A stretch of 64,000 nt of DNA from Deltaproteobacteria bacterium (GCA_020441045.1 JAGRMV010000001.1:8167-72166), one strand, 5' to 3'; shown: positions 48,240-54,998, counted from the first letter of the stretch. The notes: generated from the letters alone by a model not told the origin. Program-made: numbers and translations.

Positions 48240-48414
48240 TTGTTGTCCCTCTTGAAAAAATAGAAGATCTCGGTATACCAAACATCCGCAATAAACCAAC
48301 CATGATTTTTGACCACATCCATACTTGATATCGCTACAGCAATGATTCTCCTTTGTTTTAAACTACTTAGACAAATGGTGTTGCGCGTTATGAGAAACCA
48401 TGCTACGAGCCCCC

Positions 48415-49803
48415 ATGCTTAAAAAAACTGTTTACTTGGTAACACTTCTTCTATCCTTTATTGGCAATGCTGCTTACGCCCAGACGCATCAAGCTGATGC
48501 CATTGTCGGGCAAAACTTTTTTGAATTTTTTGGGGTTGAACCAGACGCCTTTATTGATAAAAATTTTTATTACGAATATGCACTAACTAGCACTATTCAA
48601 CTACATTATAGCTTCCCCGATCGTGAAGAGACTCAGATCCGAGGCAGTCTAAGCTATAAAGATTTTGGCTACACCCTTTTTGTTTTCGAGCTGGACCAAA
48701 ATTTTCGCATCAAAAATGTGGAAGCGATGGAAAGAGCTTCGATCATGAAAGAACAAGCTTTGTTCGAAATCAAGCACCTTCAAGCGGCTCAAGTACTTGC
48801 GACAACATTTAACCTCACTGTAAGACAGGTTTCACAACAAGAAATACGAGCATTATATAAAGAGATCCAACAATGGGAATTGATGGTAGGTGGAGAAATC
48901 TTTACCACCATGGCCACGCCTGAAGAAACAATCGATACCGAAGCCATCATCCAGAACTTAAGACAATACGTAGCAGCAGCACCTGGTGTGATTGAATCGT
49001 TTGTCAACGATCTGCACCGAGCAAGGATCGCATATTTTGGAGAACGACATAAAGATGAAAACACCCAAGCAGAAGATGATACAACGTTATTTTTTGCCGA
49101 TCGCATTTTGCCTGTCATCGACGCTCTATATTACAACAAGCTCGCCTACGAAGGATTACCGATGCCAAAAGATGCAACATTGTCTTTCCTTTATAAAATT
49201 TTATATCAAGACGGCAAGGCAAGGCAATCGATAAAAGGTTTCGTTAATATAGCTACCAGATCCAAAGCGTCTGGAGTACATCTTTTGGATCAAGTCTTTA
49301 GTAAAAGTATGCAAATCACTGGATACAGTATTTTGCCATCGGAGGTGCCCGACCTCCAAAAGCTTAAAAACCCCGAATTTGAGAAGGCAAAAAGAATAAA
49401 TACCAACGCCTTGCTCACCGTACAAGAACATATCCAAACGACACCTTCATCTGAAAAATTGGCCTTGTTTGGTGGCGCCTCGCACAATGATACCAAACCA
49501 ATCAATGCATATTTCGAAGGCTTGTACGTTGGAAATGAAATTGAAAAGCTGGTTGGCAAAGATAAATATATCGCCGTTGATTTTGTTTCCCTTGCGCATC
49601 TATACAGTGATGGTCCAACTTCACCGTTTGATCATGATGGCATGCTAGATCAAGGCGTCAAGTTAGCCTATCTATCAACACATTTTAGTGGCATATCAAA
49701 ACAAGCTGCGCAGCAAATCGAAAAACCAATTTTGGCAAAAGTACCTGCCGGTCACCCCAATAGACCTATCGCCAAATATATTTTCTTTTTGCCGTTTCCT
49801 TAA
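48415..49803 (+). CDS. Secreted hypothetical protein (signal MLKKTVYLVTLLLSFIGNAAYA)
   Basis: Track ORF 48400..49803; signal peptide by eye; no recognisable motifs. Confidence 0.45.
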   Translation: MLKKTVYLVTLLLSFIGNAAYAQTHQADAIVGQNFFEFFGVEPDAFIDKNFYYEYALTSTIQLHYSFPDREETQIRGSLSYKDFGYTLFVFELDQNFRIKNVEAMERASIMKEQALFEIKHLQAAQVLATTFNLTVRQVSQQEIRALYKEIQQWELMVGGEIFTTMATPEETIDTEAIIQNLRQYVAAAPGVIESFVNDLHRARIAYFGERHKDENTQAEDDTTLFFADRILPVIDALYYNKLAYEGLPMPKDATLSFLYKILYQDGKARQSIKGFVNIATRSKASGVHLLDQVFSKSMQITGYSILPSEVPDLQKLKNPEFEKAKRINTNALLTVQEHIQTTPSSEKLALFGGASHNDTKPINAYFEGLYVGNEIEKLVGKDKYIAVDFVSLAHLYSDGPTSPFDHDGMLDQGVKLAYLSTHFSGISKQAAQQIEKPILAKVPAGHPNRPIAKYIFFLPFP

Positions 49804-49923
49804 ATTTTGCAACGTGCATCAGTTTTTTGTAAAAATTCCACGAGACTTCACCAGGATCAATTTCCAGTTGGATCTTCCTCAAATCGATTCCTTGGCTTAG
49901 TATATAAAGTAAGCTTTAATATT

Positions 49924-51066
49924 TTAAAAATACGAAATAGTATGCCAACGCTTAAATTGTCTGATTTGCTCGGCCCATAGGCTTGACTTTGTCTCAAATG
50001 ATGGCTGGTCAAAAGCCTGGTCAACTTTTGGGGTATAAAACAAGCCCTGGATTTCATCGTACCGGGATGTAATAAAATCTAAATAATGCGCCGTTGAACT
50101 CCGACCACAACTCCATGCCATTTGACCAAAAGGCGGCATTTTTGAAAAAACATTTGCCTGTTGAACTTGCTTGCCAAGTTGTTGTCTTTGAAATCCTGGC
50201 AAAATTTCTATCAGCGCAAATTCCATACGCAATCGTAGAAGCTGTAGCAAATTTTTTATATCCTCGGGTAGGGATGTATAAAAAACTTGGAGCTGATTTA
50301 CATCTGATGGCTTTTCTATTTCATAAAGCCTTTGCACAGGTGAAAGCATATACAATAAAGGAAAAAAATCGGCATAGATAGCAAAGACCCGCATCGATTC
50401 CAGCGCTACACGATGTTGGGTTTCTTCTTGATCTTCGTCTCCGAAAATATACTCAATATTATCTATGGCATAGGCTTTGGGTCTGGTCCAATGCATTTGC
50501 AAAACGGTCCACACATATCCAGACAAAATCTCACAATTTGATCGTTGTACTAAAGAGCCGATATGCTCCGCATCGAACAGTCCCTGCAAAGAAAGGGTGA
50601 TGTTGTCTTGCGTGAAAAAGTACTCCTGATCTAGCATGACCTCCGGGGCAATTTCCTGGTGCATATCCAACCCCCATGCGTTGATCAGATCCCAAACCTG
50701 TTTTAAGTACTGCCTTCGTGCAAGAAAATTGTCAACTTGGTGGTCTATATAGCGTTGTGGAATTTCAGTCAGCATACCCACTCCGCTACTGAGTTGTTCG
50801 ATGATATGGATATGATCAATCATAGCAAGCCACTTTGTTTGACAAGATGCTTTTTGTAAAGAGGTAGTTTTTAAGCGTAACAAGCGTGCCATGTAATCAA
50901 AATCGATATCATGATAATCCATCTGCCCTTGCACAGACGACTGCGTAATACCATCTGAAAAGGTATACGTCATAGGGGCAGAAAATTCGCGATCGGCAAA
51001 CCGGTTTTGCGCAAATACGTGTTGATAGGCACCGACTGCCAAAAATATGTACAAAAACATTCTCAT
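49924..51066 (-). CDS. Secreted hypothetical protein (signal MRMFLYIFLAVGAYQHVFA)
   Basis: 380 aa ORF with signal peptide; no recognisable motifs. Confidence 0.45.
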   Translation of the reverse strand: MRMFLYIFLAVGAYQHVFAQNRFADREFSAPMTYTFSDGITQSSVQGQMDYHDIDFDYMARLLRLKTTSLQKASCQTKWLAMIDHIHIIEQLSSGVGMLTEIPQRYIDHQVDNFLARRQYLKQVWDLINAWGLDMHQEIAPEVMLDQEYFFTQDNITLSLQGLFDAEHIGSLVQRSNCEILSGYVWTVLQMHWTRPKAYAIDNIEYIFGDEDQEETQHRVALESMRVFAIYADFFPLLYMLSPVQRLYEIEKPSDVNQLQVFYTSLPEDIKNLLQLLRLRMEFALIEILPGFQRQQLGKQVQQANVFSKMPPFGQMAWSCGRSSTAHYLDFITSRYDEIQGLFYTPKVDQAFDQPSFETKSSLWAEQIRQFKRWHTISYF

Positions 51067-53245: not shown

Positions 53246-54568
53246 TTAGTCTTTGCGACAATTTCCCCATTTCAAGCTGGTTTTTACGTATGTATCAATA
53301 CTAGAGGTAGCTGGCTGATTTGGCGAGGATTGCATTTGTACATTGTCTCGATGCACTTGAAGTGAACTAGATTTACAGTTTGGTTGCAAATCATCGCTTG
53401 TCACCACATCATCATCTTTGCTTACATTGATGGTAAGAGCTTTGTTTTGGGCAAACATCATTTGTACATGATAAGGCCCAAACGCCAGCGTATAAATTGT
53501 ACGGTTACCGCTTGCATCTTGTTCAACATTGTATGTTAGGACATGATACGGATGGTTTTCTTGGTCACGCGATGCAATCTGACTGACATCAGAAATCGAA
53601 AGCATGGTGAACGGAACCAATTTATTTTTATCCACAGGCACACCGTGCTGTTGTAAAAGCAAGACAATAGACATGCCCGCAAGTACCAATGCCGCCAACG
53701 GAGCTGCCGGAGCTGCCAGACCCCCTGAACCTAAAATCGAAGCAATGGTAAGTCCCAAAATAGCAAGCAAAAGACCTGCAATACTGATTTTAAGTTGTAA
53801 CTCGACATCCCATTCTAAATCACCCATAGCTTTCCAGGCATCTTTTAACCCCTCCAAAAAACGATCCCAGATGTTTTGGTTGATGGGCTCATCAACCAAA
53901 TTATCCATGTTTGGCACTGGACGATAGTGTGGCTGCGCATCGCGAGGAGAAATGGTATTATCTTCATTCCACGGATTACGTTGCTTGGCCTCTGGTGATA
54001 TGGGTTGGCCATCACTTTGCGGTACAAATTTTTTATCTTCTATGCCATTGCCTGTTGAGCAGGTCACATTTTTGGCAAAGCTCGTAATGTTATCAAAGTC
54101 AATACTGGGGTTTTTGCTGAATGCATCAAGGCCAGAAGTTAGATTGATGCCTGATCTTTTTTTGATATCAAACATATAATCACCCAAAGCATTGAACAAA
54201 TTTCGAGGAAGACTTGTCATCGGAGTAGAACCTTCAGGCAGTAAAGCCCGTTTAAACGTATTCTCATTGATTTTTAAACATGTCCCGATAAAGTATAGAT
54301 GGCAATTGAAGATAAAGTTTGCCGGTGTTGTATATTGGAACGTGACGTAGCGGTTTTCCCAAAGTTGCTCAAACGTTTGTTGGTGGATGTTTTGGGTGCT
54401 GATCAGCGCGTCGTTGGCATTGCACTGTCCGTAAGCAATGCCCCACTGACTTTGTGCATATGACATTGGTGTTAGAAGACAAGACACCCCGAGAACGAAA
54501 GCAAAAAAGAATGGAAAAACATATACTTGGTGATAAAAATTACACCATATTGATTGATTATATTTCAC
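53246..54568 (-). CDS. Hypothetical protein with N-terminal signal and a central about 48-aa bilobed hydrophobic segment
   Basis: 440 aa; …LKISIAGLLLAILGLTIASILGSGGLAAPAAPLAALVLAGMSIVLLLQ…. Confidence 0.4.
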   Translation of the reverse strand: MKYNQSIWCNFYHQVYVFPFFFAFVLGVSCLLTPMSYAQSQWGIAYGQCNANDALISTQNIHQQTFEQLWENRYVTFQYTTPANFIFNCHLYFIGTCLKINENTFKRALLPEGSTPMTSLPRNLFNALGDYMFDIKKRSGINLTSGLDAFSKNPSIDFDNITSFAKNVTCSTGNGIEDKKFVPQSDGQPISPEAKQRNPWNEDNTISPRDAQPHYRPVPNMDNLVDEPINQNIWDRFLEGLKDAWKAMGDLEWDVELQLKISIAGLLLAILGLTIASILGSGGLAAPAAPLAALVLAGMSIVLLLQQHGVPVDKNKLVPFTMLSISDVSQIASRDQENHPYHVLTYNVEQDASGNRTIYTLAFGPYHVQMMFAQNKALTINVSKDDDVVTSDDLQPNCKSSSLQVHRDNVQMQSSPNQPATSSIDTYVKTSLKWGNCRKD

Positions 54569-54686
54569 AATTGTACCATCCCCCGCAAAAGAACAAGTTG
54601 AATTCTAACATATTCAAGAGGAGTCTTCAACCTGTGAAAGACCGGAAGTCATTGCAGCACAATTCACTTAAAAGAACAGGATATAG

Positions 54687-54998
54687 CAATGGAGCACTGG
54701 AGCACTGGCGTATATTTTTTCATTCGAACCAGATGTCGATGTGCAAAATGGCAAAGGCAACTCACCACTGCACGATGCTGCGAAAAAGGGGCTCACAACA
54801 GCTGTAAAAATGCTGATCAATGCTCGAGCGGACAAGGATATTATAACGCTGGCATATGCAGAGAAATATCATAAAAATGGATCCTACGACACCATACCGC
54901 AAGAAAAACATGCATCGTATATAAAATCGTTGCCAACAAATCCTTGGCCAGTAAAACTTTTATTTTTGTCTTTTTTATATTTTTTCAAAAAGCATTGA
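54687..54998 (+). pseudogene. Ankyrin-repeat gene remnant (single ANK repeat, no ATG start, frame-disrupted upstream)
   Basis: …DVDVQNGKGNSPLHDAAKKGLTTAVKMLINARADKD… is a canonical ANK repeat. Open frame begins right after a TAG at 54684 with only a GTG available. An 8-bp tandem duplication GAGCACTG x2 lies at 54692-54707. Confidence 0.3.

Follow-up and report, generated by a model that had tools for sequence, protein, structure and literature searches.

The genes of the block

This study concerns a block of 6.6 kb (48400-54998) within a stretch of 64,000 nucleotides, hereafter the window, of the metagenome-assembled genome (MAG) GCA_020441045.1 (JAGRMV010000001.1:8167-72166), which NCBI labels 'Deltaproteobacteria bacterium'. 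An initial annotation had described the block as four secreted proteins without recognizable motifs, two small enzymes and a decayed ankyrin-repeat (ANK) gene, and had seen in it an effector island of an amoeba-associated bacterium. All seven open reading frames (ORFs) that it named were recovered in our ORF list. They correspond to the deposited proteins MCB1196776-782 and comprise four large genes, here called A, B, E and F, a GFA and a VOC gene, and the ANK remnant (Table 1). The GFA, VOC and ankyrin calls score above the Pfam gathering cut-offs, the transporter on the left is a Gate-domain protein according to Pfam, the block holds no housekeeping gene, as had been said, and on its right follow CPBP, aas, lplT and tetR. 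Based on the data below we favour, with moderate confidence, the reading that the block is a native, lineage-restricted variable region made up of independent units, in which A would be a hydrolase of the TIKI/Ere/ChaN type.

The genes are oriented + - + + - - + across the block, and this alternation is incompatible with an operon and predicts at least four transcription units, namely A, B, GFA-VOC, and E and F, in addition to the ANK remnant.

Table 1. Features of the block, its flanks and other parts of the window (positions are those of the window; aa, amino acids).
Feature	Position	Strand	Length	Accession or remark
Gate-domain transporter, left flank	46983-48299	-		MCB1196775.1; NCBI 'spore maturation protein'
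A	48400/48415-49803	+	467/462 aa	MCB1196776.1; KDK51_00245
A, Sec signal peptide			aa 1-22	predicted
A, N-terminal region			aa 23-170	unknown fold
A, TIKI/EreA/ChaN-superfamily alpha/beta domain	48922-49749	+	aa ~170-445	C-terminal, TIKI/Ere/ChaN-like
A, E210	49042-49044			catalytic-type residue
A, H212	49048-49050			catalytic-type residue
A, E246	49150-49152			catalytic-type residue
A, H357	49483-49485			catalytic-type residue
B	49924-51066	-	380/378 aa	MCB1196777.1; KDK51_00250
GFA	51266-51688 (ORF 51140-51688)	+	140 aa	MCB1196778.1
VOC	51782-52165 (ORF 51743-52165)	+	127 aa	MCB1196779.1
Second-VOC stub	52231-52270	+		31-nt direct repeat of VOC 5' end
Direct repeat, copies 1 and 2	51788-51818; 52234-52264		31 nt	446 nt apart
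E	52273-53115	-	280/278 aa	MCB1196780.1; KDK51_00265
F	53246-54568	-	440 aa	from GTG 54568; MCB1196781.1; KDK51_00270
F, hydrophobic hairpin	53633-53806		aa 255-312
ANK remnant	54690-54998 (ORF 54741-54998)	+	85 aa	ANK protein in NCBI, MCB1196782.1
Segment absent from the congener	54656-54846		191 bp	contains the ANK repeat
CPBP (CPBP/Rce1-like) gene, right flank	55095-55838	-
Divergent left-flank patch	40979-42407			LigB, AhpC
batD/batB/batA/DUF4381/DUF58/MoxR operon	28442-35589
S8 subtilase-domain protein	23830-28233		1467 aa	domain at residues 275-580
3-Hydroxyanthranilate 3,4-dioxygenase and ACMSD-like amidohydrolase	3637-5168

Protein A as a candidate hydrolase of the TIKI/Ere/ChaN superfamily

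The statement that the large proteins lack motifs does not hold for A, which carries a TIKI-type catalytic motif and fold. A word-indexed search against 5.8 billion clustered proteins returned A itself only, and HMMER, run in full over 1.84 billion representatives, retrieved five relatives (six clusters including A): P0003, 35% identical over the full length (E = 5e-58), P0004 (E = 1e-18) and P0005-P0007 (E = 1e-7 to 9e-4). Invariant positions in the alignment of the six proteins are G209, H212, E246, G354, H357 and N358; at position 210 one protein has Asp and the others have Glu. It was from the family motifs FGE(K/R)H, LExLP and GGAxHN that a relationship to TIKI, ChaN and Ere was predicted. 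Neither Pfam, also when queried with the five relatives, nor NCBIfam returned a family of this superfamily for A even at E <= 10, and searches of the PDB with phmmer and with the A-family profile were empty. As the family is unseen by the curated models, it would represent a new family of the superfamily and not a member of an existing one. The conservation of this family also suggests that A is a real gene under constraint.

A structural model was built with AlphaFold2 (AF2) on the six-sequence alignment. Its predicted local distance difference test (pLDDT) values reach 70-90 in the core of the beta-alpha-beta domain at residues 170-445, which is modelled as an alpha/beta fold with a central parallel beta-sheet flanked by helices, and are poor for residues 1-170. 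In structure comparison the model scored 14.3 with both ChaN (2g5g) and an Ere-like protein (2qgm), 14.1 with EreC (6xcq), 13.9 with BcR135 (2rad), 13.0 with HopBA1 (5t09), 10.4 with PMT (2ebf) and 10.0 with RRSP (5w6l), the next fold, that of the SRP GTPases, scoring 7.3. Foldseek returned HopBA1 (2e-6), RRSP (1e-4) and BcR135 (8e-3), and the sequence identity of A to all structural matches is 11-13%.

Active members of the superfamily are defined by a set of two histidines and two glutamates (2His/2Glu), which in RRSP is E3900/H3902/E3930/H4030 (PMC6254334) and in EreC E47/H50/E78/H289 (PMC7979712). In the proposed mechanism a histidine activates water and metal has no catalytic role in RRSP and the Ere enzymes (PMC6254334, PMC7979712); Tiki itself is described as metal-dependent (PMC6254334). 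With the pattern taken as E-x(1-2)-H, a Glu about 28 residues later and a second His after a later strand, E210-x-H212, E246 and H357 of A agree with the set in order, spacing and strand-end position, the strands of the model near these residues being 205-210, 240-249 and 348-354. We propose that E210, H212, E246 and H357 are the catalytic set of A and presume that they cluster in a single pocket. A thus shares fold and 2His/2Glu set with the TIKI/Ere (EreA/B/C, BcR135/136)/ChaN superfamily, in which RRSP, PMT C1-C2 and HopBA1 are included, and A and P0003 differ from these members by an N-terminal region of their own, about 150 residues long.

A carries a putative Sec signal peptide with cleavage between NAAYA and QTH (signal peptides, here and below, were judged from the sequence by reading and with a hydropathy scan), and P0003, P0004 and P0006 have signal-peptide-like N-termini as well. 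Taken with the model, A is best read as a Sec-exported hydrolase that forms a new and very rare family of the TIKI/Ere/ChaN superfamily.

Proteins B, E and F

The four large proteins had been described as secreted. Three of them, A, B and F, do carry a classical Sec signal peptide, whereas E has an uncleaved anchor. PADLOC and PHROGs searches with all four gave sub-threshold noise only. We tried and rejected a common origin of the four, as Smith-Waterman comparisons with 300 shuffles gave z <= 1.0 for all pairs; likewise, hhalign assigned a probability of 0.06% to the A family against B, and a match of FGERH to FGDED that had been noted by eye was dropped.

The predicted signal peptide of B is cleaved between QHVFA and QNR, and from this topology B would be an exported soluble protein. 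B matched itself only among the 5.8 billion clusters and had no match in Pfam, NCBIfam, the PDB, PADLOC or PHROGs, and AF2 run on the single sequence gave a pLDDT of 35, which is unusable. It could be argued that some of the large ORFs, B above all, are chance or decaying open frames and not genes, considering that B has no homologue, that its structure prediction failed and that its orthologue would fall into an assembly gap of the only close relative (see below). Yet, a frame of 380 codons at 41% GC is, by a rough estimate, very unlikely to arise by chance, B shows the order GC1>GC3>GC2 and a gene-like codon likelihood typical of the genes of the window as well as a canonical signal peptide, and E and F are equally orphan-like and nevertheless under purifying selection. 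We consider it highly improbable that these frames are not genes, and the length of the ORF, its codon statistics and the signal peptide indicate that B is probably a real one.

E begins with a hydrophobic anchor that offers no good cleavage site and is followed by a charged domain; it is probably anchored in the inner membrane with its domain in the periplasm. No Pfam or NCBIfam family matched E, phmmer against the PDB gave one chance-level match (Alba, E = 0.48), and a viral scan found nothing.

F consists of a putative signal peptide, cleaved between PMSYA and QSQ, an N-domain that contains Cys, a linker rich in Pro, a hydrophobic hairpin of 58 residues in the hydropathy profile, and a C-domain. 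This topology suggests that F is exported and that its hairpin re-enters the membrane or crosses it twice. F matched no family in Pfam or NCBIfam, phmmer against the PDB was empty, and a scan of metagenome contigs and a tblastn search of plasmids returned nothing. The NCBI model of F comprises 406 aa and starts at Met35 (M35), so that the signal peptide is missing. In the close relative described in the next section the frame is open upstream of M35 and has an ATG, the hydrophobic stretch and the SYA/QSQ cleavage site are kept, and M35 is replaced by Thr. On this evidence the 440-aa F with the signal peptide is the better gene model, and the deposited start is probably wrong. F of the relative contains three indels (-2, +1, -2) within 90 bp, and the homologous peptide is readable in the shifted frames; either an assembly error or a very recent disruption would account for them.

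Comparison with a near-conspecific genome

Through the protein cluster of VOC (member MEZ4820131.1) we found a near-conspecific MAG, GCA_041391435.1, hereafter the congener, which carries the NCBI label Bdellovibrionota. Its contig 10 (JAWKOA010000010.1, L163) begins inside VOC and is colinear with window positions 51901-62424; the nucleotide identity is 91-92% between the middle of VOC and DUF2339, a stretch that includes E, F and aas. Its contig 6 (JAWKOA010000006.1, L167) begins within the RND gene and matches 44700-32423 colinearly at 96.9% nucleotide identity. The region in between, 44.7-51.9 kb, is an assembly gap of the congener lying between two contig ends. In the window this interval contains the Gate transporter, A, B and GFA, together with two-thirds of the RND gene and the 5' half of VOC. 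Thus, the sole close relative has VOC, E and F, and A, B and GFA fall into its gap.

Across the shared part, VOC is 97.7% identical in amino acid sequence to its counterpart (dS 0.14, dN/dS 0.07), E (MEZ4820132.1) 92.5% and free of indels (dS 0.14, dN/dS 0.24), and aas 96.3% (dS 0.14, dN/dS 0.13). The two halves of F differ: the C-terminal half is 93.6% identical (dS 0.27, dN/dS 0.12) and the N-terminal half 80.7% (dS 0.62, dN/dS 0.17). The low dN/dS ratios demonstrate that E and F are real, constrained coding genes under purifying selection. On the question of whether the block is syntenic and conserved with orthologues of known function, which the initial annotation had raised, the answer is divided: VOC, E, F and aas are syntenic and under purifying selection, but the orthologues have no defined function.

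The divergence between the two MAGs is uneven. The left flank has a baseline dS of 0.02-0.05, interrupted by a divergent patch (Table 1) in which dS rises to 0.66 in LigB (83% amino acid identity) and to 0.38 in AhpC, and all genes to the right of 51.9 kb have a dS of at least 0.14. This mosaic suggests homologous recombination with diverged alleles. Diversifying selection on the N-domain of F was considered and rejected, as its dS of 0.62 comes with a dN/dS of 0.17 and LigB and AhpC show an equal jump; the divergence of this domain is attributed to the mosaic recombination and not to positive selection.

Indels are also unevenly spread in the congener. None is found over the 2.1 kb of aas, whereas the neighbouring CPBP gene has 9, and about 67, many of which lie in homopolymers, are spread over the 4.4 kb of lplT, tetR and DUF2339 (L163 3190-10265, equivalent to window 55095-62424). 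On contig 5 (L161) clpX and tig are likewise split. Patchy long-read polishing or real pseudogenisation could be the cause.

Synteny around aas and the lineage

With Aas as query against GTDB species representatives and JGI metagenomes, the best identity was 69-70%, and the MAGs with the best matches are labelled mostly Rickettsiales or Alphaproteobacteria. We fetched 160 loci around aas homologues with up to 10 kb of flank each. In these, lplT, tetR and DUF2339 remain adjoining aas, whereas tblastn (E <= 1e-3) gave no match to A, B, GFA, VOC, E, F, ANK or CPBP. Past the 3' end of aas each relative has other genes, indicating that the block and the CPBP gene sit where conserved synteny ends; the loci of about 70% identity, which lack block matches, lose synteny at aas anyway. 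The flanking genes had been taken as a conserved CPBP-aas-lplT-tetR operon, of which aas-lplT-tetR is indeed conserved and the CPBP gene is not. From its distribution we assign the CPBP gene to the variable region and not to the conserved operon. Its distance from the stop codon of aas is only 2 nt.

The nearest loci with the four-gene synteny aas-lplT-tetR-DUF2339 (60-70% identity) come from MAGs labelled Rickettsiales, Alphaproteobacteria or Opitutia, and the labels of the source MAG ('Deltaproteobacteria') and of its congener (Bdellovibrionota) conflict with each other. A literature search on the assembly and locus-tag identifiers yielded nothing relevant. The Gate-domain transporter of the left flank falls into a cluster at >=90% identity with a 90-aa fragment (P0013) from a 737-bp ENA metagenome contig, and the species is thus present in at least one further sample.

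Composition, mobility and gene repertoire

A deviation in GC or codon usage, which the initial annotation had proposed to look for, is not seen: the composition of the block is native. Its genes have a GC content of 0.37-0.42 against a window mean of 0.41, and the GC3 and synonymous-codon likelihood of every one of them lie inside the spread of 41 other genes of the window. There is no tRNA in the window, no repeats frame the block (only short, weak ones were seen), and no integrase or transposase domain was found among the scanned window proteins, the scan covering all but the overlapping ORFs and six ORFs in the dcw cluster (9805-16156). Searches of plasmids and phages with the 6.6-kb block showed no similarity, an Rfam scan gave no match, and promoter and terminator scans gave matches at chance level. 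Likewise, no secretion-system domain was found in the 64 kb examined.

These data bear on the possibility that the block is a genomic island acquired recently by horizontal transfer from an unrelated donor. None of its proteins matches in the aas loci of 69-70% identity, it lies at the end of synteny, and the congener assembly breaks on its left side, all of which would be compatible with an insertion. However, the block cannot be told apart from the rest of the window by GC, GC3 or codon use, and shows no integrase or transposase among the proteins scanned and no tRNA, flanking direct repeat, plasmid or phage match; given the native composition and the lack of mobility hallmarks, recent import is unsupported. 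Moreover, P0003 is located in contig 5 of the congener (L161 9914-12095), where it has the same N-terminal extension as A and is found next to lon, clpX, clpP, tig and a putative tRNA. Since this paralogue is resident in the lineage, it speaks against a foreign origin of A. Recent acquisition is, to our mind, very unlikely.

P0003 is convergent with a gene for a 140-aa GFA protein, and we considered whether the A family has a conserved neighbourhood. This was rejected, as that GFA protein is only 27% identical to the GFA of the window and the neighbours of P0004, P0006 and P0007 are unrelated; the repeated adjacency of an A-like and a GFA gene may be a coincidence.

The remainder of the window encodes mur/dcw genes, PriA, the batA-D/MoxR operon, a two-component system, RND/TolC efflux, a cardiolipin-synthase-like PLD and the kynurenine-pathway enzymes 3-HAO and ACMSD. 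This ordinary repertoire is not that of a reduced endosymbiont. Some of these genes deserve separate mention. The bat operon, in which batB is of the TPR-VWA and batA of the VWA type, is complete, and its proteins are 99-100% identical where the congener overlaps. The 1467-aa protein has an S8 subtilase domain and about 900 other residues without Pfam match, and is a predicted large protease, possibly secreted. The genes of 3-hydroxyanthranilate 3,4-dioxygenase and an ACMSD-like amidohydrolase, both of the kynurenine pathway, adjoin each other.

The small enzymes and the gene remnants

GFA matches Pfam GFA (PF04828) with 45.4 bits (cut-off 24.3, E = 1e-11) and the CENP-V/GFA structure 8ajq in the PDB (8.5e-7), and shows the CxC...CxC...C..C pattern of a Cys-rich zinc motif; with 20.6 against 234 in NCBIfam it remains far below the cut-offs of the S-(hydroxymethyl)glutathione synthase equivalogs. 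VOC matches Pfam Glyoxalase (PF00903) with 27.2 bits (cut-off 20.6, E = 5.6e-6) and Rv0577 in the PDB (4.5e-8). The start ATG of GFA has an AAGGAG site 6 nt upstream, that of VOC is set by an AAGGAG site too, and both agree with the NCBI proteins. GFA and VOC are predicted small enzymes; neither has a signal peptide, and nothing evident connects them with the exported proteins.

The stub of a second VOC gene directly follows the VOC stop codon and reads MASSVG*FKIY as compared to MKANSVGWFEIY. Its 31-nt repeat of the VOC 5' end is 84% identical to the original, and a repeat of this kind is expected by chance about 0.01 times in 10 kb (a rough hand estimate). It would be the decay remnant of a tandem VOC duplicate that has been lost. 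The ANK frame matches Pfam Ank with 25.0 bits (cut-off 21.1, E = 2.1e-5) and a single repeat, and AnkY/LegA9 of NCBIfam with 19 bits against a cut-off of 600. It contains the tail of one repeat and one full repeat, after which come about 50 residues that are not ANK; a stop codon immediately precedes it, and the segment holding the repeat is absent from the congener; the former description of a decayed ANK-repeat gene is therefore well founded. Together, the ANK piece and the VOC stub are decay leftovers that mark the site as a zone of gene turnover.

The effector reading

Islands rich in effectors and ANK proteins are known from the amoeba-associated Legionella, Rickettsiales and Chlamydiae, and the block resembles them in its ankyrin fragment and in its lineage-restricted proteins that defy annotation. 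If the block were of this kind, A, F, B, E and the former ANK protein would be delivered to a eukaryotic host or to bacterial prey. Among the closest folds of A are indeed HopBA1, a type III effector, and the toxin domains of RRSP and PMT, and the congener is labelled Bdellovibrionota, a phylum that includes predators. F invites comparison with the Inc proteins, substrates of type III secretion systems (T3SS) of vacuolar pathogens that have a bilobed hydrophobic hairpin of 40-60 residues, as the two-helix hairpin of F is of similar length; F also has a cleavable Sec signal and no homology to any family, and no T3SS is seen in the window.

The Sec signals or anchors that all candidates carry fit the periplasm or type II export and not a T3SS or a type IV secretion system (T4SS), for neither of which a gene is found within the 64 kb. 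The fold of A serves equally in heme uptake by ChaN and in antibiotic esterases, the ANK gene is dead and its repeat deleted in the congener, and the genes are neither co-oriented nor arranged as an operon. In contrast to the ANK-rich islands, the block has no functional ANK gene, its composition is native and the gene repertoire around it is not reduced. As for an amoeba-associated lineage, the NCBI labels of the two genomes are Deltaproteobacteria and Bdellovibrionota. The island of effectors proposed at first is not supported, given the native composition, the lack of mobility genes among the proteins scanned, the division into at least four units, the Sec signals and the ordinary repertoire, and delivery of the block proteins into a host or prey seems unlikely to us. 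In a narrower version, an uncultured Bdellovibrionota-labelled lineage would use A, and possibly also B, E and F, as secreted weapons, with A a new TIKI-type protease or esterase acting, as RRSP or HopBA1 do, on a specific prey or host target, and F a membrane-inserting hairpin protein whose exposed N-domain is exchanged between strains by recombination; we regard this combination as more doubtful still.

Interpretation of the block

We propose instead that the block is a native, lineage-restricted variable stretch that would be neither a single system nor an imported island. It would lie just past the 3' end of the tetR-lplT-aas unit, which here runs on into the lineage-specific CPBP gene, and its large genes would encode Sec-exported or membrane-anchored proteins of the envelope or the secretome, real and under purifying selection. 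Once exported, A may use E210-x-H212, E246 and H357 of its C-terminal domain to activate water and, judging from fold and motif, would then cleave an ester or peptide bond, either within the periplasm or extracellularly. Chromosomal regions that vary between strains and lie at breakpoints of synteny gather lineage-specific genes, and the block resembles such regions in its lineage-specific genes of mixed orientation at a breakpoint, in its gene remnants (ANK and the VOC stub) and in the locally raised divergence between near-conspecific genomes. It differs in that two genomes are compared here, one of them with a gap, and that E and F are kept in both. Being lineage-restricted, the block can be called accessory, but it is native, consists of several units and is partly conserved at the species level.

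Several points weigh against this proposal. A, B and GFA, lying inside the assembly gap at 44.7-51.9 kb, have no congener counterpart for comparison; the native composition is compatible with an ancient transfer; and the orphan status of E and F comes from weaker scans (metagenome, viral, plasmid and aas loci). The model of A has a mean pLDDT of 54 and is reliable in the core of the C-domain only. The basic active-site residue of the relatives, R4001 in RRSP and R261 in EreC, has no evident equivalent, as an invariant Arg or Lys between E246 and H357 was not seen in the six-sequence alignment, which is gappy there. Finally, several members of the superfamily (ChaN, PMT and HopBA1) are not known hydrolases, and A might be a protein of the ChaN type that binds heme or another cofactor in the periplasm and has no catalytic, hydrolase activity. 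Against such a role, A keeps all four 2His/2Glu positions, H212, E246 and H357 being invariant in 6/6 sequences, whereas the non-catalytic PMT has lost the motif (PMC6254334). We find a pure binding function rather unlikely and retain the reading of A as a hydrolase.

The block itself is ordinary, and the result relieves the locus of the label 'effector island', which was attractive but lacked support. What is useful here is A: it defines an exported and very rare family within the TIKI/Ere/ChaN superfamily, one that appears to possess the full catalytic set and goes undetected by sequence models. As members of the superfamily include proteases that cleave Wnt, toxins that cleave Ras, macrolide esterases and proteins of heme uptake, a new branch whose active site seems intact would be a reasonable target for substrate discovery, be it in the inactivation of antibiotics or signals or in the attack on prey or host.

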